Assembly (NCBI GenBank): GCA_964244895.1 | Contig: CAXTKV010000073.1 | Coordinates: 1 to 22,165, forward strand | Length of the DNA: 22,165 bases | Direction of reading: 5' to 3' | Source: an uncultured Deinococcales bacterium | GTDB taxonomy: Bacteria; Deinococcota; Deinococci; Deinococcales; JAAFIG01 | Shown here: positions 5,200-20,332 of the stretch, in pieces | How positions within the stretch are numbered: position 1 is the first letter of the stretch | How the letters are laid out: every line of letters begins with the position of its first letter | The notes under the pieces: model-generated | Told to the model about the DNA's origin: nothing | The model's input: only the letters and a program-made list of their open reading frames with translations | The model's database searches: none | Position numbers and translations under genes: made by a program

Positions 5200-5381
5200 G
5201 TAGACCTCTCGTGTGCACTATCAGCGCTCCAGTCGAGCGCTTGGATGTTATCGATCCCTGTTGCCTCGATCACCAGAGCGCCGCTGGTGACATCGTAGAC
5301 CCTCCATCCGCTGCGGGATGTTGTCAATAGCCGCTGCCCGTTCGGGCTCCAGATCACCTGGTTGGGTCCGGCGTCGAGCAC
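5200..5381 (-). pseudogene. WD40/beta-propeller gene fragment
   Basis: VIWSPNGQRLLTTS..WRVYDVTSG...IQALDWSAD resembles one or two WD40 blades. There is no complete gene. Confidence 0.5.
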
Positions 5382-5432
5382 CCCACTCGTAAGCTGTGTT
5401 GATTTTTGGTATTCGATTCACGACACTAAGCT

Positions 5433-5540
5433 GTGACCAACACGAAACTTACCCCGCACGAATGGAAGAAAATACTCGAATTCCCCCGCACCCGTACCGA
5501 CTTCTACATCGGCTACCCTACCGGCTGCAAACACTTCTCG
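5433..5540 (+). mobile_element. Possible N-terminal remnant of an IS5-family transposase
   Basis: KLTPHEWKKILEF.RTRTDFYIG.PTGCKHF resembles IS5/DUF4096-type N-termini (from recall). The DNA is AT-richer and the gene is truncated. Confidence 0.4.
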
Positions 5541-5861
5541 GAACCTCAACCGATACTTCCAATTCAGTTCAAAACGTTCGAGCATACTCAGCACAAGACT
5601 GAAATTGTCCCGAAAAGTGGTGGTTCTGCGCTTTTGGTGCCACGTTCAATAACCCCACTTTTGAGCCTGTATCGGACCCAGAGATCGTTGATTTTTGACA
5701 GTAACCCAGCCGAAAACGGTCGCGAAAATCCGTGACCGAGAGTGACGAATCGCAAAACCAGTCGCCGAAAGAGAACTGTCCAGCACGCGAAATCGTGAAG
5801 CAGAGGTAAAAATCGGGACAGACAAAAAAACGCCCTAGCTGGACTCACAACCAGCCTCAAA

Positions 5862-6130
5862 TCAGTCCGCCGCGTCAGGAATAAGCACAGTTACATTGAC
5901 GCTTTGGTTGTCGTTGTCATCAAGATCGCCACCGTCTTGATTCAGAAAGTCCGCCATGCTGATCGCCGCTTCCCGTCGTTGCTCATCGAACAGGTGCGCG
6001 TACTTTTTGAGCGTGAACGCCACGCTCGTGTGTCCCAGGCGATCCGAGACGACCTTGGCGTTCAACCCGCGTCGGATTAGGACTGAGGTGTTCGTGTGCC
6101 GCAGGCCGTGGTCACTGAGGATCGCCTGGG
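5862..6130 (-). pseudogene. Tyrosine recombinase/integrase C-terminal fragment
   Basis: HGLRHT...VSDRLGHTSVAFTLKKYAH carries the H-x-x-R, LGH and catalytic Y motifs. The N-terminal part is absent. Confidence 0.85.
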
Positions 6131-6384
6131 CGTTGAACCTCCTGGAACTGCTCGAGCGGGCACTGGCCGACGCAGGGCCGTGATGGTCTGTCGTCGGTCG
6201 CAACGGTTCACGAGGGCCAGTCCTACATGCCCAGTGAGGCCTCGAGGATGGTGGCGAAGGTCATCGGTATCCGTGAGGCACAACGCGGCGATCAGACGAT
6301 TGACGATCCGGCGTGCGGCTCGGGTTCACCGCTGCCGAGGCGATCAACGAAGCGCTGTCGGGCGTGACGAACGAGAGCGAGTCT

Positions 6385-6431
6385 GAAAAGAAAAGCGGGT
6401 AGGTTACGTCTAGCACGATGAAAACCTACCC
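6385..6431 (-). terminator. Putative intrinsic terminator of the minus-strand gene run
   Basis: GGGTAGGTT (6397-6405) pairs with AACCTACCC (6423-6431), with extra inner pairing. It is followed on the minus strand by GCTTTTCTTTTC and lies ~40 nt after the stop at 6473. Confidence 0.5.
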
Positions 6432-6472
6432 AAGAGATCAAGGTTGTTTCTGAAAGGCGCCTTCATGCATGC

Positions 6473-7573
6473 TCAGGCCGACGCTGGGTGACGCGGCAAA
6501 CCGGCCAGGCCGCCCAACTCCGTCTCGAGCAAAATCGCGAGGTCGCCGCGCAAGAACCGCAGGCGCAGCCCGAACCGCTCGCGGAGTTCGCCCAGCACGT
6601 CGCGCAAGGTCGTGCCCTCGACGCCCAAGCCGGTCAAGGGCGAGATGCCCTGCGCCGGGTACGCCCCGAAGACGTACCCCTGCCCATCGCGCCAGACCGG
6701 TAAACTCGAGCCGTCGCCTGCGACCAATAGCTCGTACACGCCGCCCTCTTGCATGGCGGTCAGGGTCGCCTCCAGGCCATGCACGCCGCGCTCGCGGGTG
6801 GCCTCGAAGGCAGCCTGATCCGCGTCGTGCTGTGCCGTCTCGAGGATCGGCTGAGCCGCTTCGAGGACGCTGGCGGCAGTGGCGTCGCCCGGCGTGTGGA
6901 ACGTTCCAGCGAGTGCGCCTTTTAGGTCGGGGGTCAATTCCGCCGTCAGGCTGGAGCGCATCTCGGGCGGCCCGGCGATCAGTAAGCGTTCGAAACTGCC
7001 CGCTTGACGCAGCTGAACGAGCTTCTCGACCAGCGTGTTCCAGAGAACCTGATCCTGGTGTTGCTCGTAGTGGTCGTCGGCGATGTCTCGCGCAAAGACG
7101 CGCCGTCCAGCCTCGAGACCGAGCAGGTCGTGCAACTCGCTGATCTCGCCGAGCCGCACGCTGAACAAACGCCCCCAATCGTGATCCACCAGGACGATCA
7201 GGCTGGGTGGGCTGGATTGAAGCGCGAACCGCAGTGGCTCGAGATCGGGCGTGCCGAAACGGGCGGACTCGGGCAGTTCGAGCTGCACGTCCACAACGCG
7301 GCTCTTGACGTGACCGCTCTCATCCCAGACGAAGTACGCCCGCGAGCGGGTCGAGCGTTCCGCGTCACTCAGATCGTCCAGCACCGCTTGCGTCAGCGCC
7401 TCTGGAGCCTCGAGCGCAGTCATCGAGTTCTTCGCGCGGATGCGGAGCGCACCGCCCTGGTTGGTGGGACTGCCTGGATTGACATCGAGCACCACACAGA
7501 GCACGTGGTTTGATGGAAGCTCACCCTCGAGAACCTTGGGGGTGTCGTAATCGAGAGGGATGTTGGTTTGCAC
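6473..7573 (-). CDS. Bacterial aeRF1-like protein (baeRF/VLRF1-type), no GGQ motif
   Basis: 366 aa, GTG start with AGGAG RBS. aeRF1-like motifs LIVLVDHDWGRLF, RLLIAGPPE and GVHGLEATLTAMQEGGVYELLV, and C-terminal LGGLAGLPR. Confidence 0.75.
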   Translation of the reverse strand: MQTNIPLDYDTPKVLEGELPSNHVLCVVLDVNPGSPTNQGGALRIRAKNSMTALEAPEALTQAVLDDLSDAERSTRSRAYFVWDESGHVKSRVVDVQLELPESARFGTPDLEPLRFALQSSPPSLIVLVDHDWGRLFSVRLGEISELHDLLGLEAGRRVFARDIADDHYEQHQDQVLWNTLVEKLVQLRQAGSFERLLIAGPPEMRSSLTAELTPDLKGALAGTFHTPGDATAASVLEAAQPILETAQHDADQAAFEATRERGVHGLEATLTAMQEGGVYELLVAGDGSSLPVWRDGQGYVFGAYPAQGISPLTGLGVEGTTLRDVLGELRERFGLRLRFLRGDLAILLETELGGLAGLPRHPASA

Positions 7574-7687
7574 GATGGCTCCTGACTTCGTTGGGGAGAA
7601 GGCTGGACTGCGACGGGCCGGCGGGACTACCTCGAGATGGCGCGTCTGGAGCGCTCGAGAATCGCTGCGACATCAGTGCAGACCCGT

Positions 7688-8815
7688 TCAGGACTGCGCG
7701 AGCACTTGCGCTACCGGACGGCGCAACGAGCGCGGCATTGGATCGGCGTAGCCGAAGCGAACGAGGTATTGGGGCAGCGCTTCCTTGAGGCCCATCGCAC
7801 GCTGAAACTGCTCACGGACGGCGGCGACTTCGTTCGGCTGATTCAAGGAAGCAGATTTGATGTTCAACGAGGTCATCTCGAGTGCCAGGCGCTCGTAGAC
7901 CTGACCTGTACGCACCCAGGCGGCTCGGTCATCTGAACCCGAGGCGATCAGGACTGCGCCGGATGAGCTGCGAAATTTTTTGGCATCCGCGTCGGCCTGC
8001 TGTTGTGGGTTCGTCCCGGAGACGACCATCTGCCCCAGCCAGCGCGGTACTTCCGGGCTGCCCGCACAGCGCGAGTACAGGCCGTCGAGCGAGGCGAGCG
8101 CTTCTTTCTTGTTGAAGCGAACCCAGTGGATCAACTCGTCGACGAAGGGTTTGTCCGCGTACTGGCTGAGGTTGCCCTGGTTGATGTACTCCAACACGGT
8201 TTTTAATTCGGAAGGCTCGAGCGCGAAATGCAAGCTGATCCCCGGTTCGAGAGGTAACGCCCGTATCCGACGAAGGGTAGCGGGCTGAACGGGCTGACCG
8301 TCATAGATGGAGCGGGTGTTCTGGCGCTCAGGAATCGCATCGAACAGCGGACTCCCCCGTGGGGAATCCGCCGTCAAACGAACGCGGATGAAATCTGACG
8401 CGCCGGGATACGTGACTTCGGGCGCGTACCCCGCAGCGCGGGCAGCGATCAGCAGGTTTTCCAGCGCGCAGCCGAGGCTGATCCAGAGTTCGCGGTCTCG
8501 AGGGTCGAGGATCGGCAAACGGCGGGTGTCATCCGGGTGAATTTCGAGCAGACCGGGCTTGATCACGAAGATCCACGGTTGCGTGTTGTGCGAACTCGCC
8601 GCCAGCGTCGCGGAACGGATCAGGCCCCGCATGGGTGCAGTTGCGGTGGGTTGATCCTCGAGCGGTTGCCGGACTCGATCCGCTTGGCCGCTGTAATCAA
8701 GCCACGGGGTGTATTCGTAGAGGGCATAGCCCCCTGCGGCGGCGACGCCAGAAGCCGCCAGGAGTTGCAAAACGCGGCGACGGTTCAACGATGGATGGGG
8801 CAATGGGCTCTTCAT
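7688..8815 (-). CDS. Acg-family FMN-binding nitroreductase-like protein with a Tat-like N-terminus
   Basis: ATLAASSHNTQPW, DPRDRELWISLGCALENL, IPERQNTR, GQVYERLAL, RFGY and RSLRRP. N-terminal RRRVLQLL followed by a hydrophobic stretch. Confidence 0.85.
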   Translation of the reverse strand: MKSPLPHPSLNRRRVLQLLAASGVAAAGGYALYEYTPWLDYSGQADRVRQPLEDQPTATAPMRGLIRSATLAASSHNTQPWIFVIKPGLLEIHPDDTRRLPILDPRDRELWISLGCALENLLIAARAAGYAPEVTYPGASDFIRVRLTADSPRGSPLFDAIPERQNTRSIYDGQPVQPATLRRIRALPLEPGISLHFALEPSELKTVLEYINQGNLSQYADKPFVDELIHWVRFNKKEALASLDGLYSRCAGSPEVPRWLGQMVVSGTNPQQQADADAKKFRSSSGAVLIASGSDDRAAWVRTGQVYERLALEMTSLNIKSASLNQPNEVAAVREQFQRAMGLKEALPQYLVRFGYADPMPRSLRRPVAQVLAQS

Positions 8816-8891
8816 GGCTCAACTCCTGATGGGGTGAAACGCACCGGACGGATGCGCGCTGGTCCTGACGCCCTTCGACCCTCGAGATTTC

Positions 8892-11444
8892 TCAACGACT
8901 CCGTTGCAGACGCAATCCGACGATGGCCTTGTAGACCTCGATCCAGCCCACGCCGACCAGGGCCGCCAGTGCGCACCATCCGAAGGCCGCCATTAAAACA
9001 GGTGTAAACCCGAATAGCCGTTGCGCGGGTGCGAAAAACAACGTGGCGAGCAATAGACCGAAGGTCAGGCCGAGCATCAGCCACAGCAACCCGTTCGGCA
9101 CTTGAATCGTCTGAAGAACGGCTTGCGTGAACGACCGGTTCTCCAGCGTTAGAAAAATATTACTCAGCACCAACGTCGAGAACACCAGCGTTCGGACCAC
9201 CGCGACATCCTCGCCGTGTTGCATGGCCACGAAATAAACACCCAGCACGGCCAGCGCGATGCCCAGCCCTTGGACGATGCTCCGGCCCAGCTCAGGCCCG
9301 GCCAGAAACGTGTCGGTCAGTCGGCGTGGCGGTCGCTGCATCTGGCCCGCCTCGGCGGGTTCGTTCTCGAAGGCGATCGAGCAGGTCGGCCCCATCACCA
9401 GTTCAAGGAAGATCACGTGAATCGGACTGAAGAGGTTCGCGAACCTCCAGTTCATCAAGAGCGGTACGGCCACGGTCAGGATGATTGGGATGTGAATGGA
9501 AACGATGTACGAAACCGCTTTCTTGAGGTTCTGGTAGATCCGACGGCCCTGCGCGACGGCCTCGACCATGCTGCTCAGGTCATCGTTGACCAGCACCAGC
9601 GACGCGGCCTGTTTGGCCACTTCCGTCCCGCGCCGACCCATGGCCACGCCGATGTGCGCCGCTTTCAGGGCGGGGCCGTCGTTGACCCCATCGCCGGTCA
9701 TGGCGACGACCTCGCCGTTGTGTTTGAGGGCTTCTACCACCCGCAGTTTGGCCTCGGGAAACATCCGTGCGAACACTGAGGTTCGTGCGGCCTCGAGCCG
9801 GAGGGTGGGTTCGTCCATCGCCATCACCTGTTGGCCGGTCACGAACGAATCCGCACCGGGTAAACCCACCTGCCGGGCGATGGCCTGGGCGGTCTCCGGG
9901 TAATCGCCGGTGATCATTTTCACGCGAATGCCAGCGTCAGTGAAGGCTCGAATGACTGCACCCGCGTTCGGCTTGGGTGGGTTCTCGAGCGCGACCAAGC
10001 CCAGAAATGACCAGGTAAAATCGTCCTGCTCCGCCGGGAAATCCGGTGACAGGTACGATCCCTTCGCCACGCCCAGCACCCGATAGCCGCCCTCGGAGAG
10101 TTGTTTCGTGACGCCGCGTATTCGTCCGGCAACGTCCGGTTCAGGGCGGCACACGGCCAGAACATGCTCGAGCGCACCCTTCCCGGCCACCACCAACTTG
10201 CCCGTTGGTGACTGCCGAACGTGAGTCATCATGGGAGGAGAACCCCCCAGCGGGTACTCCCGCGCCATCGGATACGCGTCGATGGTTGCAGACGGATTTA
10301 CCTCTCCGAAGGCGGCGACGATGGCTTTTTCCATCGGGTCGAACGGATCGGTTTCGCTGGCCCATCGGGCGTAGGCCAGGACCCGCTGTGTTGAATCCGG
10401 TAACGCGGCCAAGCCGTTGGGTATCGGGAGAAGCGTTTCAGTTGCGCCGTCGTACACGTGGCGAACGGTCATGCCGACCTGCGTGATGGTGCCAGTCTTG
10501 TCGGCACAGATCACCGTCGCCGAGCCGAGGCTCTCGACCGTCTGGGGTTGCTTGGTCAGCACGCCCATGCGGCTCAGGCGGGCGGCTCCGAGGGCCATGA
10601 AGCTGCTGAAAGCCACCGGAATTTCTTCGGGCAGAATCGCCATCGCCAGCGTCAGACCGAACAACAGGGCCGTGAGCCAATCGCCGGAACGGGCGTAATT
10701 GATGCCCCAGACCAGCGCAAACGCACCCACGCCGATCCACGCCATGCGGATCACGAACCGATTGATCTGACGTTGCAGCGGCGTTTTTTCCGTCGGGATG
10801 GAACCGATGCTGCGTCCGATTCGTCCGAGTTCGGTCTGTCCGCCGACCGCCGTGACGGTGAGCTGTGCGCTGCCCGATATCGTGCTGGTGCCAGCATAAA
10901 CTGGATCGCCGGACGTTTTCGTGAGACTGACCGATTCGCCGGTCAGAATCGATTCGTCCAACGAAAAATCGTTGCCGTCCTGAATCGTGCCGTCGGCGGG
11001 GATGCGTTCGCCCTCCTCGATCAGTACGGTATCGCCCACGACGATGTTCTCGACCGGAATGGTGGTCAGTATGCCATTGCGCCAGACTTGCGCTTTTGGT
11101 TGCGTGAGCTCGCGCAAGGCGCTCAAGGCCCGGTCGCTGCGAACGGCCTGGTAGACCGATATTCCCGCCACCAGCAGCAGTGCGACGATCAGCGTCATCG
11201 CCTCCGCGAGCTCTCCGATCACGGCGTAAATCGTGCAGGCCACCAGCAGCATCAAGAACATCGGCTCGGTCACGACTTCTTGAATGGTTGCGAGCAGTGA
11301 CCCTCCGTTGTCGGTGTTCAGGATGTTCCGCCCATGCTCAACCGACGACTTCGCGGCGGCTTCGTCTGTCAGGCCCTGAACGGCCTCAAGACGGCTCGAC
11401 AAACGATCCTCTGGCGTCACGTCACTGCGTATTTCTCGTCCCAT
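8892..11444 (-). CDS. Cation-translocating P-type ATPase (type II-like)
   Basis: TGES, PEEIP, DKTGT, KGA, MITGD and TGDGVNDGPALK motifs. AGGAG RBS. Confidence 0.95.
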   Translation of the reverse strand: MGREIRSDVTPEDRLSSRLEAVQGLTDEAAAKSSVEHGRNILNTDNGGSLLATIQEVVTEPMFLMLLVACTIYAVIGELAEAMTLIVALLLVAGISVYQAVRSDRALSALRELTQPKAQVWRNGILTTIPVENIVVGDTVLIEEGERIPADGTIQDGNDFSLDESILTGESVSLTKTSGDPVYAGTSTISGSAQLTVTAVGGQTELGRIGRSIGSIPTEKTPLQRQINRFVIRMAWIGVGAFALVWGINYARSGDWLTALLFGLTLAMAILPEEIPVAFSSFMALGAARLSRMGVLTKQPQTVESLGSATVICADKTGTITQVGMTVRHVYDGATETLLPIPNGLAALPDSTQRVLAYARWASETDPFDPMEKAIVAAFGEVNPSATIDAYPMAREYPLGGSPPMMTHVRQSPTGKLVVAGKGALEHVLAVCRPEPDVAGRIRGVTKQLSEGGYRVLGVAKGSYLSPDFPAEQDDFTWSFLGLVALENPPKPNAGAVIRAFTDAGIRVKMITGDYPETAQAIARQVGLPGADSFVTGQQVMAMDEPTLRLEAARTSVFARMFPEAKLRVVEALKHNGEVVAMTGDGVNDGPALKAAHIGVAMGRRGTEVAKQAASLVLVNDDLSSMVEAVAQGRRIYQNLKKAVSYIVSIHIPIILTVAVPLLMNWRFANLFSPIHVIFLELVMGPTCSIAFENEPAEAGQMQRPPRRLTDTFLAGPELGRSIVQGLGIALAVLGVYFVAMQHGEDVAVVRTLVFSTLVLSNIFLTLENRSFTQAVLQTIQVPNGLLWLMLGLTFGLLLATLFFAPAQRLFGFTPVLMAAFGWCALAALVGVGWIEVYKAIVGLRLQRSR

Positions 11445-11736
11445 CGTTGTTCTCCTGGTGCTGGCCGTCCGATTTTCGTTGCCTGAGCGCAGATTTGTTC
11501 AGCCATTCGTGCCTGACGGTTTCGGCGCTCTTGGAAAGCCGAACGGTGTTGTCTTCGACGGTTTCGACCCACTCGAGCGGGATGTGACGCCGTTTACCGT
11601 CAGCTGTATCGCGCTTGCCGAGCTTGATGTACGTCTGTGTTTTCAGACCCACGACTGTGCCGATGTGAGAATTGAAACCTCTCCCTTTGGCTTGAATCAA
11701 CATGTCGGCACGGATGCGCTCGGCTCTCTCTTTCAC
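11422..11736 (-). CDS. DUF2171-family small protein
   Basis: HIGTV..L...YIKL.K.D..DGKRRHIPLEWVETVE.NTVRLSK. GTG start at 11736 after AGGGG; the longer 207-aa ORF overlaps the BON gene. Confidence 0.7.
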   Translation of the reverse strand: MKERAERIRADMLIQAKGRGFNSHIGTVVGLKTQTYIKLGKRDTADGKRRHIPLEWVETVEDNTVRLSKSAETVRHEWLNKSALRQRKSDGQHQENNDGTRNTQ

Positions 11737-11881
11737 GATGTCGCCCCTACGCTCGGTTCGCGCTGGCCTGCAAGATGAGGTGACTCTCGAGTCCCATTTG
11801 CAATCTTCAGCTCGCGCTGCGATTCTTCCCGGTGCTCGAGGAGAACGCACCGCGCGCAGACCCACGATCGACACGCTGGAT

Positions 11882-12541
11882 TCACGTACCGACCACGATC
11901 TGATTGGTGACCGACGTGACGCCAACGGCGTTCCAGGCGGCGCGGGTCGCCGAGTCGCGCTCGGCCCAGGTGGGCAGGTTGCCGCGCAAAGTGATGCGGC
12001 CACCATCCACTTCGACGCGAACGCGACTCGCATCGAGGTTCGCATTGCGCTCGAAGGCCGATTCGATCCTGGCGCGAACGTCGTCGGGCGTGATGTGCGA
12101 CTTGAGGGTGATCAGGTTCCTGACGCCCTTGACCCCGCGCAGGTGCGCCACGGCGTCGTGCGCACGCTGCTGCTGGTAGTGCCAGTCGAGCTGGCCCTCG
12201 AGCGTCACCCAGCCGCGTTCGACCTCGATCAGAATGCGCTTCTCGGACACGACCGCGTCCCAGTCGAGCGCGCGCCGGGCGGCTTCGGCGATGTCCGTGT
12301 CGGTGTGTTCCGGGCTGGGGAAGGGATTGACCGTCAGTTCCTCGGCCACGCCCTCGACGCCTTGCACGCGTTTGACGGCGCTTTCGGCGGCCCACTTCTC
12401 GAAGTAGTTGGTGACGCTGCCCGAGAGGGTCACGATGCCGTCCGCGACGGCCACGGCGATCTTGCCCGCGTCCAGACTCGGCTCGAATTCAAGTTCGTCC
12501 ACCACATCCTTGTGAAGTTGTGCGTCGGTCTTGCCGTTCAT
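11882..12541 (-). CDS. BON-domain protein (OsmY-like, three BON domains)
   Basis: Three repeats of the pattern V..G.VTL.G.V.......A......GV..V.N.I.V. ATG at 12541 preceded by GAGGAG/GGAG. Confidence 0.9.
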   Translation of the reverse strand: MNGKTDAQLHKDVVDELEFEPSLDAGKIAVAVADGIVTLSGSVTNYFEKWAAESAVKRVQGVEGVAEELTVNPFPSPEHTDTDIAEAARRALDWDAVVSEKRILIEVERGWVTLEGQLDWHYQQQRAHDAVAHLRGVKGVRNLITLKSHITPDDVRARIESAFERNANLDASRVRVEVDGGRITLRGNLPTWAERDSATRAAWNAVGVTSVTNQIVVGT

Positions 12542-12634: not shown

Positions 12635-12667
12635 AGCCTGATTTGCTGCCATTACCGTGGAGTGACC
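12635..12667 (-). promoter_or_regulatory. Putative activator box plus -10 element (BON operon)
   Basis: Minus strand GGTCACTCCACGGTAATG-N9-CAGGCT. Confidence 0.6.
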
Positions 12668-12805
12668 ACCTGACCTGTCGCGTCGTGGCACGATCCGCTT
12701 TTGTGTCGTGTGCGGTGGTCTCTCGGTGCTCAAAGACCGTCTCGAACGCGGAAATCCCGTTGCGCCAGTTCGCAATGCCTTGCGAGACGCGTCGAAACCA
12801 GCTCT

Positions 12806-13651
12806 TCAGCTCACGATCCGGTGCTCGAGCGCGGGCAGGCTGTGGCAGCGGAAATCCGGGGTGAACGGGCAATTGAGCGTTTCCGATGCGTCGGGCCGAT
12901 GGGGCGCGTGCAGGCAGATCTGTTCACCATCTTTGATGCGTGTCGCCAGATCCGATGTCTCGCGCATCGGTACGTCCCCGAGTTCATCGCGCAGGAACAC
13001 CAGGAAGCGCCGATAGTGCTCGATCGCGGCGTACTTGTCCTCGACCACGGACAGGCACGACATCAGCGTCTGATGGTGGTTCTCGCCGATGAACGGATCG
13101 AGCCGAAGCGCCCTGGCGAGCGCCCCGATGGACGCCGCGCACGAGCCGTTCTGGCGGTGCAGCAAGGACATCTCGATCTCGGCGCGGACGGCGGCGGCTC
13201 GGTGCTGACCGCGAACCTCGAGCACCCAATCGGCGCTCTCAAACGGCAGGTATTCGCCCGCGTACACCGCGAGCGCCCGCCGGTAGCGCTCGAGCCTGGC
13301 TTCGGGCGTTGCGGCGCGTTCCGCCTGCCCAAAGGCCGTGTAAAATTCGTGCATGTCGGACGCCTCGAACACCTCCTGGGCGAGATGGTAATGGCTGTGG
13401 TGCTCGGTGATGGCATCTCGCCAGCCGAGCGCCGCACGAAGGCGGTAGATGACCACGCGGAAGTAATTGCCGGAAACCGCGTCAGGTACGGTGTTCCAGA
13501 GCATATCGATGATTTCTTCGCGGCTTTTGCCATTCGGGTGCGAGAGCAAATAAAAGAACAGCGTTCGCGCCGCGTCTGAACGCCATTGCACCGGGCGTCC
13601 GTCCACCAGCACCTCGGCCTGGCCGAGCGTGAGGATCTTCAAGCTCTGCAC
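12806..13651 (-). CDS. SARP-like transcriptional regulator (winged helix plus BTAD/TPR), no receiver domain
   Basis: LKILTLG..EVLVDG, LFFYLL, REEIIDMLW, IYRLRAALG, ALAVYAGEYL...DWV and ALRLDPF.E..HQ.LM. The C-terminal tail is Cys/His-rich. Confidence 0.85.
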   Translation of the reverse strand: MQSLKILTLGQAEVLVDGRPVQWRSDAARTLFFYLLSHPNGKSREEIIDMLWNTVPDAVSGNYFRVVIYRLRAALGWRDAITEHHSHYHLAQEVFEASDMHEFYTAFGQAERAATPEARLERYRRALAVYAGEYLPFESADWVLEVRGQHRAAAVRAEIEMSLLHRQNGSCAASIGALARALRLDPFIGENHHQTLMSCLSVVEDKYAAIEHYRRFLVFLRDELGDVPMRETSDLATRIKDGEQICLHAPHRPDASETLNCPFTPDFRCHSLPALEHRIVS

Positions 13652-13992
13652 GGATCACCTGCACACGGAAAACCTTCTTCCATGCCGCTCGCTGTGAGCG
13701 GTTCTGGTCTTCCAGTGCGGTCCGTTGTTCAGGCCCTGGCTGGGATTGATGGCGAACTGGCGAACCAGCGGCACGTTGACAAGTTGTTTCTCGAGCAAAA
13801 CCGGATTCGGGTTGCGGACGGACCGAGCGGGTGAATACATCGCAAACCATCGCTCAAAACGCTTCCCCTCGAGCCAAACCTTGCTGTCCACGGCTCAACT
13901 TAGGCCTCGCGTTTGTCTGCAGGCTGATGGGGAGTTGATGGAACGCCTCCCAGCCCTCGCGGTTTCATGCGCCAAGCTCGAGGCCAAAACCC

Positions 13993-14044
13993 GAGAACAC
14001 CGTCCAGGACACGTATTTACGAACGCGTGCTGGACGGTGTTCTC
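13993..14044. repeat. 52-bp palindromic intergenic repeat (REP/MITE-like)
   Basis: GAGAACACCGTCCAG...CTGGACGGTGTTCTC, a perfect 15-bp inverted repeat that extends to 22 bp with 2 mismatches. Confidence 0.85.
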
Positions 14045-14137
14045 AATTGCTGAAGCCTGACGAACCCGAGGTTCACTCGTCCGTGTCGAAACGGGAGACG
14101 CGCGCGAGCGTCCTCGTCCACTGGACGTTCGCGGCCC

Positions 14138-14668
14138 TCACCTCGCCGCCATTTCGCGCACCAGCCGCACAGCGTGCGGAAGTGCGATCCGCACGCGCCC
14201 GAAATTGCAGGTGATCGCCTGCGAGCTGCTGGGCATCTCGATCACCCCATCGGCAACCATCGCGCCCTCGAGCGTCGCGGTCGTGCCCTCGAGACAGAGG
14301 CTGACCTCGAGCTTCAAGCGCACCCGAAGATCGCGGCGTTCCCCGGTCAAAGCGAACGTCAACGGCAAGAATAGGTCGCGCGCTTGCGCCCTCAGATCGC
14401 CCTTGAGCGCCCCGTTCACGTCGGTCAGGTTCATCCTCAGCTCGAGTGGAACGATGTGCGCATCGCCAGGCTCGCCGATCGGGGCAGTGGTGATCTCGGA
14501 TTCAGCCCAATACGTGCCGCTCAGGTTAACGGGCGCCGCGCCGCGCCCCGCCCCGAGGACGCCGATGAGCGTGAGGCTGCACGAAACCCGCGCGATCGTG
14601 CCACGGAGGCTTCGACGGCGTTTGGGGTTCGGTACGGTGTCCTTCAATCCATCCTCGGTTCTTCTCAA
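14138..14668 (-). CDS. Hypothetical, probably exported protein (start uncertain)
   Basis: 176-aa ORF with a basic then hydrophobic N-terminal segment, followed by a beta-rich domain (NLSGTYW). It is divergent from the USP gene. Confidence 0.5.
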   Translation of the reverse strand: MRRTEDGLKDTVPNPKRRRSLRGTIARVSCSLTLIGVLGAGRGAAPVNLSGTYWAESEITTAPIGEPGDAHIVPLELRMNLTDVNGALKGDLRAQARDLFLPLTFALTGERRDLRVRLKLEVSLCLEGTTATLEGAMVADGVIEMPSSSQAITCNFGRVRIALPHAVRLVREMAAR

Positions 14669-14701
14669 CGCCAGCGCCCGGATCTGAGTTCGGGTCGCTC
14701 G

Positions 14702-14782
14702 AGCGTAAAAGGGCGGCGTTACGTTCGAGTGACCCTTTTGGGTGGTCGCGGTAACTCGAACGTAACGGTCGTACCTGAGACT
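14702..14782. promoter_or_regulatory. Divergent promoter pair with inverted activator boxes
   Basis: CGTTACGTTCGAGTGACC (14717-14734) and GGTAACTCGAACGTAACG (14750-14767) form an 18-bp inverted repeat with 1 mismatch. Each box is followed 9 nt later by a -10-like hexamer (TACGCT on minus, GAGACT on plus). Confidence 0.7.
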
Positions 14783-14806
14783 CGAGCCAGGAAACGAGGT
14801 TCATCT

Positions 14807-15760
14807 ATGTTCCAGAACATTTTGATTCCCGTGGACGGTTCCCCCTGTAGCGCACGCGCCACGCATCTCGGACTCGAGTTCGCCAGGCGGCTCGTTGGTC
14901 GCGCGATCTTCACCTACGCGTTGATCGAGCACGTCAGCCAGGACGACGGTCAGCAGGTCTTGAGCCCGTCGGCGAGGCTGGCCGAAGAAGCCCGTGTCAA
15001 GTTCGAGACGCGCCTGATCGATGGCTACACGCAGGGCATCGGTGACGCCATTGTCCGCGAGTGCCAGGAATCGGGTTGCGACCTGATCGTGATGGGCACG
15101 CACGGGCGCGAGGGTATGGAGCATCTGCTCCTGGGCAGCGTCGCTGAGCGGGTCAGCCGTCAGGCGCTCGTCCCGGTGATGCTCGTCCGAAACCAGGAGC
15201 GTCCGACCAACGATGCTTTGAATTTCGAGCGCATCGTGGTGACGGTCGATGGCAGCCAACCGAGCCTGTTGGCGCTGACCACGGCCAACGAACTGGCTTG
15301 TGCGCTCGGCGCGAGCCTGGAGGTGATGCACGTGATCCCGGACGTACCTTCGGCCTACGCCTACGCCGCTTACGAGTACGCACCAATCATCGACTACGAC
15401 CGCTATCAGCGCGACCTCGAGGCGGAAAGTCAGGCGATTATCGCTGCGGCTCTCGCGCATTTGAAGGCCAACGCGACGAAGATGGCGGATGTCAGCACCT
15501 CACGCGTGCCCGCAAACAACCAGCGCGTCGGCGATGCCATCGCACAGGCAGCCACGGAACACCGCGCCGACTTGATCGTGATGAGTACGCACGGGCGCAC
15601 CGGCTTCGACCGATTGCTGCTGGGAAGCGTGGCCGAGCGCGTCTCGCACCGCGCCGAGGTTCCGGTACTGTTCGTTCGGGCACCCCAGGTCAAGGCCGAT
15701 CAGCCCGAAAAGACACGCTCGAATGCAGCGGTGTTATCTGATGCCGCACCGACAGGCTGA
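14807..15760 (+). CDS. Tandem-domain universal stress protein
   Basis: Two USP domains: ILIPVDGS...DLIVMGTHGR.G...LLLGSVAERV and IVVTVDGS...DLIVMSTHGRTG..LLLGSVAERV. ATG at 14807 with GAGG RBS. Confidence 0.95.
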   Translation: MFQNILIPVDGSPCSARATHLGLEFARRLVGRAIFTYALIEHVSQDDGQQVLSPSARLAEEARVKFETRLIDGYTQGIGDAIVRECQESGCDLIVMGTHGREGMEHLLLGSVAERVSRQALVPVMLVRNQERPTNDALNFERIVVTVDGSQPSLLALTTANELACALGASLEVMHVIPDVPSAYAYAAYEYAPIIDYDRYQRDLEAESQAIIAAALAHLKANATKMADVSTSRVPANNQRVGDAIAQAATEHRADLIVMSTHGRTGFDRLLLGSVAERVSHRAEVPVLFVRAPQVKADQPEKTRSNAAVLSDAAPTG

Positions 15761-15809
15761 ACCACGAACGCATCCCGGTTCTGCGCAGGATATCTCAAGA
15801 GTAGATTTC

Positions 15810-15861
15810 TTGAATACCGTCGAGCACGCAAGAATGAATGGGCGTGCTCGACGGTGTTTGC
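15810..15861. repeat. 52-bp palindromic intergenic repeat, diverged copy
   Basis: AATACCGTCGAGCACGC-N12-GCGTGCTCGACGGTGTT between the convergent USP and mgtA-like genes. Confidence 0.75.
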
Positions 15862-15923
15862 GTAAAACCATCTCGAGTACCCTGAAGGAGATTTGCGCCC
15901 GCAAAGATCATCGAGGCGCAACC

Positions 15924-18500
15924 TCAGGCCATCACCCGACCAAACAACTGGCGCTTGACCAGCTCCACCAGCCCCAGGTACGTCAGCGTCGCTCCACCCA
16001 GGAACGCGAAGTACAAAGGTGGCAGCCCGACAAAGCCGAGAATCCCTGCCAACGGCGTGAACGGCAGCAGCGCCCCGACGACCACGACCCCGAGCGCCGT
16101 CGCGGTCAACGCCGGGCTCGCCCTCGAGCGCAACGGGTTGCCGAAGGTGCGAATCACGAAGATCACCAGCGTCTGCGTGGCCAGCGATTCGACGAACCAG
16201 CCCGTGTGAAACTCGGCTTCCGTGGCTCGGAAGACTTTCAGAAGCACGTAAAAGGTCAGGAAGTCGTACAGGGAACTGATTGGCCCGATCCAGAACATGA
16301 AACGTCGAATCAGGCCGATGTCCCAGTGATGCGGTTTCTGAATGAAGGCCTCGTCAACGTTGTCGCTCGGGATCGTGATCTGCGCCAGGTCGTAGAGGAA
16401 GTTGTTGACCAGAATCTGCGTCGGCAGCATCGGCAGGAACGGTAAAAACAGCGACGCCCCGGCCATGCTGAACATGTTCCCGAAGTTGGAGCTCGTGCCC
16501 ATCAGGAGGTACTTCATGACGTTTCCGAAGGCCCGGCGACCCTCCAGGATGCCGCTCAAAAGCACCCGCAGGCCCGGCTCGAGCAGGATGATGTCGGCAG
16601 CGTCCTTGGCGACATCCGTGGCGTTGGCCACGCTGATGCCGACATCCGCCGTGTGCAGGCTGGGCGCGTCGTTGATGCCGTCACCCATGTACCCGACGAC
16701 GTGCTTGCGGGCTTTGAGCGCCAGGATGATGCGGTTCTTCTGCGCAGGTGCGACGCGAGCAAAGACCGCGTTCGCCTCCGCCACCTGAAACAACGCGCTG
16801 TCCGTCATGTCCTCGAGTTCGCTGCCCAGCACGATCCGCCCGACCTCCAGCCCGACGGCCTCGCAGACGTGCCGGGCGACGAGTTCGTTGTCGCCGGTCA
16901 GGATCTTGACCGTCACGCCCCTGGCCCGGAGTTCGTCCAGCACCTCCTTGGCGTCCGGCAGCGGCGGGTCGACGAAGGTCACGAAGCCCGCCAGCACCAG
17001 GTCGTGCTCGTCGCTGGCGCGGTACGCAACCTGTTGAACGTCAACTTGAATGGTGCGGTACGCCACCGCGATCACCCGGTAGCCCTGGGCGGAGAGTCTC
17101 TGAAAGACCCCCTCGATCCTGCCCCGCGCATCGGCGTCCAGCGGTTGCACTGATCCACCCCGCTCGAACGAGGTGCAAATCTTCAGGATGCTCTCCGGCG
17201 CGCCCTTGGTCAGCATCAGGTGCTCGCCACCTCGAGCGACCACGACCGAAGCGCACCGCCGCTCGAAATCGAAGGGAATCTCACTGAGCTTCGTGTAGGG
17301 CCGCACATCCGGGTGCTCGAACTTCAGGATCGCCATGTCCAGCGGATCCGCACCCTTGGGCTCGAGGATCGCCGCGTTGAGCGGGTTGGCGATGCCGGTC
17401 TCGAACAGGCTGTTCAGGTACGCGAGCAGGAAAACCTTTTCGGATGGCCCACCGAACGGATCGAGCCGCCCCTCGAGCGTCATCGCGCCGCTGGTCAACG
17501 TGCCCGTCTTGTCGCTGCAGAGCGTGTCGATCTGACCGAAGTTCTGAATGCTCGAGAGGTTCTTGACGATCACGTGCTGTTTGGCCATGCGGATCGCGCC
17601 GTTCGAGAGGGTGATCGTCGTGATCATCGGCAAAAATTCCGGCGTCAAACCGACGGCCAGCGCCACGGCGAACAGCAGCGACTCGAGCGGGTCGCGCTTG
17701 TGCAGGGCGCTGACGGCGAAAACGAACAGCACCAGGAAGAACACGACCTGGACGATGAACAGACTGAAGGATTTCATGCCGCGCTCGAACTCGGTCTCCG
17801 GGGCGCGCCGCTGGAGGCTGGTGACGATCCCACCGAAGGTCGTGCGCGACCCGGTCGCGGTCACGATCGCCTCGGCTTTGCCGCTGATCACGCTCGAGCC
17901 GACGAAGACGAGGTTCCTGGCATCGGCGGGGTTTTCGAGGGCTGCTGGGGATGCTTGACCCTCCGCGATGACGGTTTTCTCCACGGGCATGGATTCGCCG
18001 GTCAGGGCTGATTGTTGAACGTGCAGATCGCTGGCAGAGATCAACTGCGCGTCCGCAGGCACGAGCGCACCCGCTGAGAGGCGGATCAGATCGCCAGGTA
18101 CGAGACTGCTGCGCGACACCTCGAGCCACGCGCCGTCGCGTTTGACCATCGCGGTCGGTGAGACCTGCGTGCGCAGACGCTCGGCGGCCACCTGCGAGCG
18201 GCGCGTCTGCCCGAAATCCAGCCCGATGCTGCCGACCACGATGGCGGTGATGATCAGGGCGTTCAGCCAGTCACCCGAGATCCCGGAGATCAGGGCCGCG
18301 ATCAGCAAAATCGCCACCAGCGGCTGCGCGAAATACGCCAGCAACTGAAGCAACAATGGTCGCGGTCTCGAGCTGGAGAGTTCGTTCGGGCCGACCTCGG
18401 AGAGCTTCGCGCGTGCCGCCTGGTTCGAGAGGCCCGAAGCCGCATCGGATGCCGCCCCGCTCGAGCGCTCAAGGGTTGCAGGGATAGATTCGTTCGCCAT
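15924..18500 (-). CDS. mgtA: Magnesium-translocating P-type ATPase (MgtA-like)
   Basis: AVGLTPEFLPMI, IQNFG, DKTGT, GTSSNFGNMFS, LPFLPMLPTQIL.NN.LYD and FHTGWFVES. AAGGAGG RBS before the ATG at 18500. Confidence 0.9.
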   Translation of the reverse strand: MANESIPATLERSSGAASDAASGLSNQAARAKLSEVGPNELSSSRPRPLLLQLLAYFAQPLVAILLIAALISGISGDWLNALIITAIVVGSIGLDFGQTRRSQVAAERLRTQVSPTAMVKRDGAWLEVSRSSLVPGDLIRLSAGALVPADAQLISASDLHVQQSALTGESMPVEKTVIAEGQASPAALENPADARNLVFVGSSVISGKAEAIVTATGSRTTFGGIVTSLQRRAPETEFERGMKSFSLFIVQVVFFLVLFVFAVSALHKRDPLESLLFAVALAVGLTPEFLPMITTITLSNGAIRMAKQHVIVKNLSSIQNFGQIDTLCSDKTGTLTSGAMTLEGRLDPFGGPSEKVFLLAYLNSLFETGIANPLNAAILEPKGADPLDMAILKFEHPDVRPYTKLSEIPFDFERRCASVVVARGGEHLMLTKGAPESILKICTSFERGGSVQPLDADARGRIEGVFQRLSAQGYRVIAVAYRTIQVDVQQVAYRASDEHDLVLAGFVTFVDPPLPDAKEVLDELRARGVTVKILTGDNELVARHVCEAVGLEVGRIVLGSELEDMTDSALFQVAEANAVFARVAPAQKNRIILALKARKHVVGYMGDGINDAPSLHTADVGISVANATDVAKDAADIILLEPGLRVLLSGILEGRRAFGNVMKYLLMGTSSNFGNMFSMAGASLFLPFLPMLPTQILVNNFLYDLAQITIPSDNVDEAFIQKPHHWDIGLIRRFMFWIGPISSLYDFLTFYVLLKVFRATEAEFHTGWFVESLATQTLVIFVIRTFGNPLRSRASPALTATALGVVVVGALLPFTPLAGILGFVGLPPLYFAFLGGATLTYLGLVELVKRQLFGRVMA

Positions 18501-18605
18501 GAACCTCCTTGAATCCTCGACAGGTTTTGGTATGAACATTCCTGGTCATGTTCAGGTTGAACTCGATCTCCTCGGTGTTCTCGAGACGATGGTCTCGATT
18601 TTCCA

Positions 18606-18983
18606 TTAAATCCTCATGCGCCGCATCCAGAACATCAAGACCAGAATGACGATGTTCAGCGCGATCCCCGCGAACGCGAGGCTCGAGTCCAAACCAGTCA
18701 ATACCAGAGAGAAGACTGCCGCACCGATCAGCGCGGGTTGCCACCAGCTCGAGTCGGTCAGCATCCCGAGGGTCGCCACGACGAAACCGAGAGCGGCCAC
18801 CGCCCACAGCGCCCCAAAGACCCCGATTCCAGTCGCTCCGAGCTCCCAACGCCCATTGAGCAGGGTGGTCTTGTAGGCGAACCCCTTGATCTCACCGAGC
18901 CGCAGGTAGACCGTCGCGCCCATCAGGTGAATCAATCCGTGCGCAACCAACACCACGGCAGCCAGGATCAACGTCCATTTCAT
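18606..18983 (-). CDS. Small four-helix membrane protein (HGLIHLMG motif)
   Basis: About 125 aa with four hydrophobic segments. ATG at 18983 after GAGGTGAGGGG. Confidence 0.75.
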   Translation of the reverse strand: MKWTLILAAVVLVAHGLIHLMGATVYLRLGEIKGFAYKTTLLNGRWELGATGIGVFGALWAVAALGFVVATLGMLTDSSWWQPALIGAAVFSLVLTGLDSSLAFAGIALNIVILVLMFWMRRMRI

Positions 18984-18998
18984 GCCCCTCACCTCGAG

Positions 18999-19817
18999 TC
19001 ACTTGCCACCGCTCGACATGGCCGCGCTGACATCGGCGTTCAGCACGATCTCCTCGACGTTAAACACGGCCCACGGTTTGCCGTCGTCCATCCACGTCAC
19101 TGCGCCCTGCGTTGAAACCATCTGCCCGCCGAGCATCGCCCAGGCTCGAGTCTCGTTGATCCACAAGACTTTCTGATCGGTTTTGAAGCGCATGGCCTCG
19201 AGGAAGCACACCACGTGCGTGTCGGGGTCGAAGCGCACGACGAAGGTTTCAACACCCGCCTCGAATGGGACGGTCAGCGTGGCGGTCACGTCATCCACGG
19301 CATTCCAATGCACCCTCGGATCGGTCAGGAAAATCGCGGGGAACCAGATCGCTTCCGCCCACAACCCCAGATTGGCGGCTTGATTCGCTTTTGGGTCGTT
19401 CTGGGTCGTGCCCCACGGCATCTGCTGGCGGCTCGAGCTTGCGATGTAGGTTTCGATGACCTTCAGGATGGGCACTCCGAAAACCGTGGCTTCAATGTCA
19501 TGGCGGTAATCTTTGCCTGCGACGTGCGTGAAGCGAAAGCGTGCCGGAAAGGCGACCGGCCCGACGGGTCGAATCGTGGCCCGCCCAGAGATCACTGCCG
19601 AGCAAATCACCGGGATGTTCTCGCCGTAGATTTTCCGGTAGAACCTGGCGACCGGGGCGGGTAAACCCTCAGGTAAGGGGATCGTCTCGAGCTTCTTTGT
19701 CGGTTGGGCGAACGCTGGGAACGATGCGGGCTTGAACCTCAACCCGACGAAACCGAGTACCACCAAAAATAGAACGCTCGAGAATACGATCACGGTGATT
19801 TTGAAGAGCGTGTTCAT
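18999..19817 (-). CDS. DUF6544-like membrane-anchored protein
   Basis: N-terminal transmembrane segment, LPAPVARFY, WAEAIWFPA, V.W.AVDD.TA and EAMRF. GGGAGG RBS before the ATG at 19817. Confidence 0.7.
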   Translation of the reverse strand: MNTLFKITVIVFSSVLFLVVLGFVGLRFKPASFPAFAQPTKKLETIPLPEGLPAPVARFYRKIYGENIPVICSAVISGRATIRPVGPVAFPARFRFTHVAGKDYRHDIEATVFGVPILKVIETYIASSSRQQMPWGTTQNDPKANQAANLGLWAEAIWFPAIFLTDPRVHWNAVDDVTATLTVPFEAGVETFVVRFDPDTHVVCFLEAMRFKTDQKVLWINETRAWAMLGGQMVSTQGAVTWMDDGKPWAVFNVEEIVLNADVSAAMSSGGK

Positions 19818-19926
19818 GGTTGCCTCCCGTGCGGGCGCACGAACCGGGCCGCAGTGGGTTCGTGCATCTTGAGGCGCACCCGGTGACCCCCTACGATCCA
19901 ACTTCGTGGCGGCGAGGGTCTGTCAC

Positions 19927-20223
19927 TCAAACGGAGCTTGATGATCCTGGATTGGCCGAGTCAGTGTTCGCCTCCGGGAGCGCACCGGTTCGTTCGACAA
20001 CGATGGTCAAGTGCGCCGCAAGAGCCGCGATCGCGCCAATCGCCGCCCAGACGGGTAGCAGCAGCGCCCCGACCACACCGACTGTTAATGGAATCTCGAT
20101 CAGGGTGTGACCGTCATCGTTCTTGATCGTGACCCGACGAATGTTGCCTTCGTGCAAGAGATCTTTGAGTTTGCCAACCATCGCGTCGCCGCTCAGTTTG
20201 AATTCCTGGGTGTTGGGCGTCAT
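19927..20223 (-). CDS. DUF4342-domain protein
   Basis: KLKDLLHEGNIRRVTIK....LIEIPLTVGVVGALL.P..AAIGAIAAL....TIVVER. AAGGAG RBS before the ATG at 20223. Confidence 0.85.
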   Translation of the reverse strand: MTPNTQEFKLSGDAMVGKLKDLLHEGNIRRVTIKNDDGHTLIEIPLTVGVVGALLLPVWAAIGAIAALAAHLTIVVERTGALPEANTDSANPGSSSSV

Positions 20224-20299
20224 CTGATGCTCCTTTGATTCATGTTCTCGAGATGGCTTCTTGGATGTGCCGATTGTGATGTTCGAGTTCAGCAAGCAC

Positions 20300-20332
20300 A
20301 CCATCAGGCGCGACCGTTACCACCGAGTGACC
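20300..20332 (-). promoter_or_regulatory. Putative activator box plus -10 element (DUF4342-mgtA operon)
   Basis: Minus strand GGTCACTCGGTGGTAACG-N9-GATGGT. Confidence 0.65.

Follow-up and report, generated by a model that had tools for sequence, protein, structure and literature searches.

A SARP-type regulator and direct-repeat promoter boxes in an uncultured Deinococcales bacterium, with low oxygen as a candidate signal

The stretch analysed here (hereafter, the window) is a 22,165-nt contig of the 5.12-Mb genome of an uncultured Deinococcales bacterium (G000), and it encodes a stand-alone SARP-type regulator together with four direct-repeat boxes, each lying in front of a gene (Table 1). 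On balance we favour, from sequence comparison, a reading in which this regulator activates four stress and dormancy promoters via these boxes, probably under low oxygen. The control system appears to be undescribed. The names of homologues also point to Deinococcota. Labels beginning with G, L and C denote genomes, loci and contigs, and those beginning with g and f denote genus and family groups.

The window regulator and its boxes

A sequence-only reading of the window had listed four sites, each made of a GT(C/A)AC-type direct repeat with an 11-bp period, then exactly 9 nt and a NANNNT hexamer. All four strings matched the window exactly in position, strand, period and spacing. The repeat itself was only partly well described, as GTMAC occurs in the upstream half-site only and the downstream half-site is always GTAAYG. 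All four boxes are intergenic and oriented toward the next gene, with 93, 54, 24 and 76 nt between hexamer and start codon (boxes 1–4), and the four box sites showed no promoter of sigma-70 consensus. The hexamer of box 3, GAGACT, also follows the box of the universal stress protein (USP) gene in the syntenic locus L022.

The pattern GGTMACTC-N4-GTAAYG, allowing at most one mismatch, matched the window four times and had no match in each of 100 dinucleotide shuffles, and the looser pattern GTMAC-N6-GTMAYG retrieved the identical four matches (shuffle mean 0.03, maximum 1). Genome-wide, the core was counted five times, four of them on the window contig (chance of at least four of five there, ~2e-9), and the fifth copy (contig C303) is without a NANNNT hexamer. 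These counts place the motif at the cluster well above random expectation. Genome-wide, the repeat by itself shows no excess at period 11, where 12 GTAAY pairs were counted and other periods reached as many as 18, so the set in G000 is small and local.

By domain content and fold the window regulator is a small SARP, as had been claimed from its translation. The domain scan detected BTAD (Pfam, 2.4e-12), with Trans_reg_C at 5e-4, below the cut-off, and no receiver, LuxR or GAF domain. The protein begins with its winged helix-turn-helix (wHTH), and an in-frame stop lies two codons upstream. Its structure model had a predicted local distance difference test score (pLDDT) of 91.4, and the fold search with this model returned only six matches at E ≤ 0.001, all of them AfsR or EmbR (template modelling (TM) score 0.68–0.71), among them AfsR 8k60 (E 7.5e-11, TM 0.69). 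A profile search of 1.84 billion representatives delimited a bounded regulator family, with 38 newly listed and 4 known members down to E ~1e-46, past which mostly long BTAD proteins begin. For the window regulator itself, the protein atlas returned generic SARP clusters only, and a metagenome scan gave only two weak, unrelated loci.

The family has conserved cysteines. Close homologues keep Cys at positions 166 (92/120), 171 (114/120), 199 (117/120), 246 (110/119), 261 (85/103) and 269 (85/94), and the outgroup BTAD rows have it at 166 in 2/108, at 171 in 2/108 and at 199 in 59/106, while they hardly align past 245. The window regulator keeps C171, C199, C246, C261 and C269, and has R in place of the family C166. 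Judged from the helix order of the model, residues 166, 171, 199 and 246 should share one end of the helical stack. Two family members (L180, 14967–16370; L183, 12216–13619) have a C-terminal GAF domain that replaces the short Cys tail, and boxes adjoin their genes.

Boxes and regulator genes in relatives

We profiled 64 loci around orthologues of the regulator (61 from one search and three from others, with some overlap) and gathered GTMAY-N6-GTMAY repeats from them without regard to the hexamer (n = 141). In Deinococcus psychrotolerans (NZ_CP034186.1) and Deinococcus sp. KNUC1210 (NZ_CP092187.1), an orthologue and boxes are carried by named plasmids. NANNNT stood at spacer 9 in 104 of these repeats and in at most 13 at any other spacer between 4 and 14, and period 11 accounted for 128 GTAAY pairs, compared with at most 10 for other periods. 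The layout of repeat, 9 nt and hexamer thus follows the orthologues across the phylum, which supports the proposed link between regulator and box as far as sequence can show. The family consensus from 102 distinct sites was (G/C)GTAAYG(C/G)NNN(G/C)GTAAYG-N9-NANNCT, with G/C directly after GTAAYG in 89 sites and T as the first base of the hexamer in just 27. The window box is a variant, because this consensus has GTAAYG in both halves. From these patterns, it is very probable that the four window repeats are functional activator boxes of the regulator family.

The first gene behind 99 sites, by automatic choice of the open reading frame (ORF), encoded USP (37), a CBS protein (15) or the regulator (10), with 12 unassigned; the remainder included phosphoribosyltransferase, Hsp20, DoxX, phosphoenolpyruvate carboxykinase (PEPCK), multicopper oxidase, oxidase subunits II and IIa, lactate dehydrogenase (LDH), Acg, baeRF10 and others. 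Genes for phosphoketolase and a nitrite-reductase-like copper protein also follow boxes in several genera. The oxidase subunits behind boxes carry PF09125 and PF08113, which we take to be ba3-specific oxidase subunit families. The genome-wide lists of six further genomes (60 loci for 65 sites) were also covered; a scan of 38 of their 58 first ORFs assigned a Pfam family to 24 and added phosphoenolpyruvate synthase, a SufS-like desulfurase, and flavodoxin and ferredoxin-like proteins.

Among the sites of relatives, six start codons lie 5–6 nt past the hexamer, as in leaderless mRNAs. For Deinococcus deserti, the available part of the published start-site study reports that 94% of starts are preceded by a −10 motif, that a common −35 is lacking and that 60% of mRNAs are leaderless (PMC4007540). 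The rows listed from its start-site table contained no GTAATG and three GTAACG matches, and they give 7–8 bases left of the −10, too short for the 9-nt layout.

The usual gene order in relatives, and on contig C16 of G000 (see below), is USP, two back-to-back boxes, regulator. In the window, the gene for a 169-aa protein and a 78-codon ORF separate box 2 from the regulator gene, and no terminator-like or sigma-70-like site was found between 13651 and 14138. Given this absence and the back-to-back boxes before the regulator elsewhere, box 2 is likely autoregulatory and probably also drives the window regulator's own gene. The 78-codon ORF (13655–13891) ends 3 bp before the regulator start and has no Pfam match; it could be spurious, or else a leader ORF coupled to what follows.

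To profile co-occurrence we scored 251 genomes, with at most nine candidates per genome and family membership set at a best E below 1e-40 (none fell between 6.5e-48 and 4.9e-30), and 101 had a member. At least two loose-pattern sites were present in 93 of these 101 genomes and in 26 of the 150 without the regulator (62/68 and 5/24, respectively, within genus g7), and reversed-pattern controls gave 5/101 and 10/150. With the strict pattern, at least two boxes were found in 77/101 and 3/150; both sets of figures overstate the association, as the patterns were derived from regulator-near sites (partly circular) and kin are not independent.

Similar repeats also occur outside the regulon. In genus g9 a single conserved box was detected in 16 of 30 genomes and precedes a FabH-like gene in all five examined; it was considered as a target of DnrS, a BTAD activator of Thermus, and set aside as another regulon, since the FabH-like gene follows in 5/5. 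A conserved TGTAAC-N5-TGTAACA repeat, at the same 9-nt distance to the −10, precedes the FabH-like gene in genera g9, g13 and g18 (L175–L179, L108, L110, L114). Three genomes of genus g38 (G201, G249, G260) have 20–23 GTAAYA-type sites of the same layout and no family member (the strict pattern leaves 1–3); these sites probably belong to a different wHTH activator with a large regulon. In G000, contigs C26, C68, C87, C197, C199 and C264 hold several GGTMACGCNCCRGTAACG repeats without the 9-nt hexamer, possibly another regulator's sites, and contig C13 (31924–33384) has two back-to-back GTAACC direct repeats near an OmpR-type gene.

Paralogues, proposed mechanism and alternatives

G000 has a second paralogue, 56% identical to the window regulator, on contig C16. 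This locus (5270–12200) combines the paralogue, which has all six cysteines, with three canonical boxes, and its neighbours, read from translations, are USP, pyruvate-kinase-like, PEPCK and LDH-like genes. The family matrix ranked the three C16 boxes (before LDH, USP and the paralogue) first in G000 and window boxes 4th, 6th and 7th, and no score in the reversed genome was at the level of the top G000 boxes. A variant matrix built from eight sites of G005 and G001 ranked the four window boxes first in G000, a partly circular result, as the sites were fetched with a window-derived pattern. The scan of G000 with this matrix found no further boxes before DUF2171, Acg, baeRF10 or mgtA, or directly before the regulator. 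Among 364 genomes, at least three variant boxes were present only in G000 (4), G005 (3) and G001 (3), and seven genomes have one.

The window regulator (FRVVIY) and the G005 protein encoded on C78 have in common the recognition helix FRVV(I/V)Y and R for C166, whereas the family has FRVTVH and C. In G005 a variant box lies directly behind the regulator gene of the window helix type. A quick tree separated the window regulator from the C16 paralogue and placed it in a clade of 15 rows with support 98. Joint drift of box and recognition helix is plausible from these comparisons, and we consider the window regulator to be quite likely the main reader of the window boxes. The pair of paralogues with their own box types in one genome is new relative to the sequence-only reading, as are the phylum-wide regulon, its GTAAYG consensus and the probable second role of box 2 as a promoter of the regulator gene.

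In AfsR, as described in the available part of the structural report, the −35 is covered by two adjacent DNA-binding domains, which end 8 bp before the −10 and recruit polymerase (PMC11301090). By analogy, two wHTH domains of the window regulator would bind head to tail on the 11-bp repeat and replace the −35 element, and the regulator would keep RNA polymerase in place at a weak −10 hexamer. Box 2 would feed back onto the regulator's own transcript. The changed helix would likely read the drifted upstream half-site GTMACTC, and the C16 paralogue the adjoining canonical GTAAYG boxes. The conserved cysteines of BTAD and tail may form a metal or iron–sulfur site that would be intact at low oxygen.

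The low-oxygen signal is suggested by the targets, as they include a set like that of the mycobacterial dormancy regulator DosR, fermentation-type enzymes and ba3-type oxidase subunits. Oxygen or redox sensing seems likely because of the family's conserved cysteines, which are missing from other BTAD proteins. An FNR-like cysteine cluster was found in none of the seven CRP-type proteins of G000. Overall, low oxygen is a reasonably likely signal, and a cysteine-bound cluster as its sensor falls slightly short of an even chance. The full combination, a one-component SARP with a cysteine-bound iron–sulfur cluster as a Deinococcota oxygen sensor and a regulon that paralogues have split through changes in recognition helix, box and cysteine set, each part answering its own redox threshold or signal within one cell, is put forward tentatively.

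Several observations weigh against these proposals. USP, BON and Hsp20 genes are general-stress genes as well, and so, as growth-arrest genes, are those of CBS proteins and hibernation-type factors. No oxidase or fermentation gene is among the targets within the window itself, the window regulator is without C166, C199 is common in the outgroup too, and the Cys tail is of low confidence in both structure models (pLDDT ~50). The same regulator and boxes could then answer to a signal other than oxygen, through a structural zinc or a thiol switch, during energy shortage, stationary phase or drying. We rate this as unlikely, as ba3-type oxidase subunits, LDH, PEPCK, phosphoketolase and the nitrite-reductase-like copper protein are encoded behind boxes in several genera, and the ba3 oxidase is a high-affinity enzyme expressed under limited oxygen, according to the available part of PMC9060599. 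As to the reader of the window boxes, the co-variation of helix and box rests on two genomes, and the closest syntenic orthologues (G011, G007 and G015, in the same clade) retain C166 and have canonical boxes in front of USP and BON. G001 has three to four variant boxes, and only canonical-helix regulators, none of the window type, were found in its assembly, which is 74% complete. The downstream half-site of the window boxes is canonical, the family matrix ranks three of them close behind those of C16, and the single variant boxes of seven genomes lie outside family f1. These points would fit a reading of the window boxes mainly by the C16 paralogue, by both paralogues or by mixed dimers, the drifted half-site merely tuning strength. 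This is improbable, as the four variant boxes all lie within 7 kb of the window regulator and none is at C16, where the boxes are canonical, and as in G005 a variant box immediately follows the gene of the window helix type.

The family as a whole could also be the wrong reader. In G110, a one-contig assembly that is 98% complete, canonical boxes stand in front of three genes, those of USP, CBS and oxidase subunit II, and no family member was detected; a second search found none in it or in four other box-bearing genomes, and G164 and G201 have two to three strict sites without one. OmpR-type regulators use similar repeats: GTAACC repeats with the same spacing precede an OmpR-type gene in L118, and G000 has 19 OmpR-type wHTH (Trans_reg_C) matches. 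The layout alone therefore does not single out a SARP, and the SARP-type geometry of the sequence-only reading holds in being AfsR-like, not in being specific to SARPs. That an OmpR/PhoB-type response regulator or a widespread receiver-SARP reads the boxes, with the BTAD gene a mere neighbour or target, is nevertheless very unlikely; every g7 genome has weaker BTAD matches (E 1e-21 to 1e-29), yet the boxes track the family there, and they cluster around and directly before the family gene. Least credible is that the repeats are remnants of a local duplication, transposon ends or a hairpin, without regulatory function. Boxes 2 and 3 are nearly identical and make up an inverted pair of 18 bp, the cluster edge has an integrase fragment, and CTCGAACATCA is common to boxes 1 and 4, 12–13 nt further on (21 genome copies). 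Against this, both half-sites and the 9-nt distance are constant among boxes whose spacers differ, and in other genera, where the flanks are unrelated, the layout recurs in front of the same gene families.

CTCGAACATCA was also considered as a second motif after boxes 1 and 4 and was rejected, CTCGAG and CTCGAA words being very common in G000. CTCGAG is the commonest hexamer of this genome (21,883 copies in 5.12 Mb, versus 568 of GAGCTC), a HIP1-like overuse that is visible too in the flanks of family f1 relatives.

Related systems, cluster genes and significance

The wHTH+BTAD module is common to the window regulator and the SARP activators of Streptomyces and mycobacteria, AfsR (8k60, 8hvr) and EmbR (2ff4). 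The direct repeat of AfsR lies 8 bp before the −10, and in the window family the predicted −10 is 9 nt from GTAAYG, or 8 nt counting from the following G/C. The window regulator differs from AfsR and EmbR in its ~22% identity, a different repeat and the lack of an ATPase/TPR or FHA part; its family, from Deinococcota, has its own cysteines and tail, and targets in stress, fermentation and respiration rather than antibiotic or cell-wall genes. It also differs from OmpR/PhoB response regulators in having no N-terminal receiver domain.

In target set, the family resembles DosR, a LuxR-type response regulator that is phosphorylated by heme sensor kinases and binds palindromes. We take the CBS protein Hrp1, Acg-family proteins and Hsp20 to be members of the DosR regulon. 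Its genes further include those for universal stress proteins, the cation P-type ATPase CtpF, Rv2629 and a phosphoribosyltransferase, according to the available part of PMC7753917. The likeness thus covers USP, Acg, Rv2629-like, P-type ATPase, CBS and Hsp20 genes, but the window regulator is a one-component SARP on direct repeats without a receiver domain, and would work like DosR without being a member of its family. FNR is a CRP-family protein on palindromes, in which a cysteine-bound cluster turns on the activator without oxygen. The likeness to FNR lies in the proposed logic only; there is no shared fold, and the window regulator is not a CRP protein.

The BTAD activator DnrS of Thermus thermophilus belongs to the same phylum. 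As far as the available parts of the two reports go, it has an oxygen-sensitive conformation and is needed for anoxic genes; it is a large protein with its GAF domain at the N-terminus, nitrate respiration is under its control, no binding site is known for it, Thermus has no FNR homologue, and the DnrS sensor is stated as unknown (PMC5748679, PMC7694296). The window regulator has no GAF domain and the GAF members of its family carry it C-terminally (L180), which sets it apart from DnrS by description. None of 30 genomes of genus g9 (presumed Thermus) matched the family profile at 1e-12, and no nar genes were found among the 20 window proteins that were domain-scanned. Deide_19260 (COG3947) of D. 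deserti is a receiver-SARP with a CheY-like receiver, conserved across Deinococcus, with targets given as not known in the available part of its report (PMC3564903), whereas the window family is without a receiver and patchy (68 of 92 genus g7 genomes). The sequence-only reading did not recognise the regulon as described, and we likewise found no description of the regulator family, box or regulon in the literature searched, which left subscription papers mostly outside and did not cover RegPrecise-type databases.

Table 1 Regulator, boxes, predicted −10 hexamers and genes of the cluster in the window
Feature	Position	Strand	Remarks
Stand-alone SARP-type regulator, 281 aa	12806..13651	-	wHTH, BTAD and Cys-bearing tail
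Box 1	12650..12667	-	direct repeat GGTCACTC-N4-GTAATG; precedes BON gene; variant-matrix genome rank 4
−10 hexamer CAGGCT (predicted)	12635..12640	-	9 nt past box 1
Box 2	14717..14734	-	precedes exported-protein gene; regulator gene further downstream
−10 hexamer TACGCT (predicted)	14702..14707	-	9 nt past box 2
Box 3	14750..14767	+	precedes tandem USP gene; back-to-back with box 2, 15 bp between
−10 hexamer GAGACT (predicted)	14777..14782	+	9 nt past box 3
Box 4	20315..20332	-	precedes genes for DUF4342, DUF6544, membrane protein and MgtA-like ATPase; variant-matrix genome rank 1
−10 hexamer GATGGT (predicted)	20300..20305	-	9 nt past box 4
Three-BON-domain (OsmY-like) protein	11882..12541	-	first gene behind box 1; domain scan
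DUF2171 protein	11422..11721	-	likely in box 1 operon, 160-bp gap; own box in L045
Cation P-type ATPase (type II-like)	8892..11444	-	23-bp overlap with DUF2171 gene
Acg-family FMN-binding oxidoreductase	7688..8815	-	NF047509 above cut-off; Acg gene first behind box in L081
baeRF10 protein	6473..7573	-	first behind box in L059
169-aa protein with signal-peptide-like start	14138..14647	-	first gene behind box 2; export predicted from sequence
Tandem universal stress protein	14807..15760	+	first gene behind box 3; domain scan
DUF4342 protein	19927..20223	-	first gene behind box 4; first behind canonical boxes in L180 and L082
DUF6544 protein	18999..19817	-	domain scan; first behind canonical box in L234
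128-aa membrane protein	18606..18992	-	no Pfam family; 46% identical homologue first behind canonical box in L251
MgtA-like P-type ATPase	15924..18500	-	TIGR01524 above cut-off

From gene gaps of 6–160 bp, boxes 1 and 4 appear to be followed by two long operons. The gene families behind box 4 (DUF4342, DUF6544, the 128-aa membrane protein and P-type ATPases) are also found behind canonical boxes in other genera, the P-type ATPases in L180, L243 and L267. The baeRF10 protein weakly resembles the ribosome hibernation factors Rv2629/MSMEG_1130 (NCBIfam matches far below cut-off), and the 169-aa protein has four homologues (48–82% identity) and no Pfam family. The integrase fragment at the left cluster edge is the C-terminal part of a tyrosine integrase (PF00589; window 5862–6203), and the cluster may occupy an old island, given its presence there.

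These results bear on how Deinococcus and its relatives sense low oxygen, for which they provide a candidate regulator with a precisely defined box and a list of targets, in ~100 genomes. They would also point to a role for DUF4342, DUF6544 and DUF2171, and the paralogue pair is a natural test of which helix residues of SARPs set DNA specificity. If the reading is true, the reach of SARP activators would widen beyond antibiotic control to include a dormancy-type regulon. A cluster bound by the cysteines would make the family a novel type of oxygen sensor, one that does the work of FNR and DosR with an unrelated fold.

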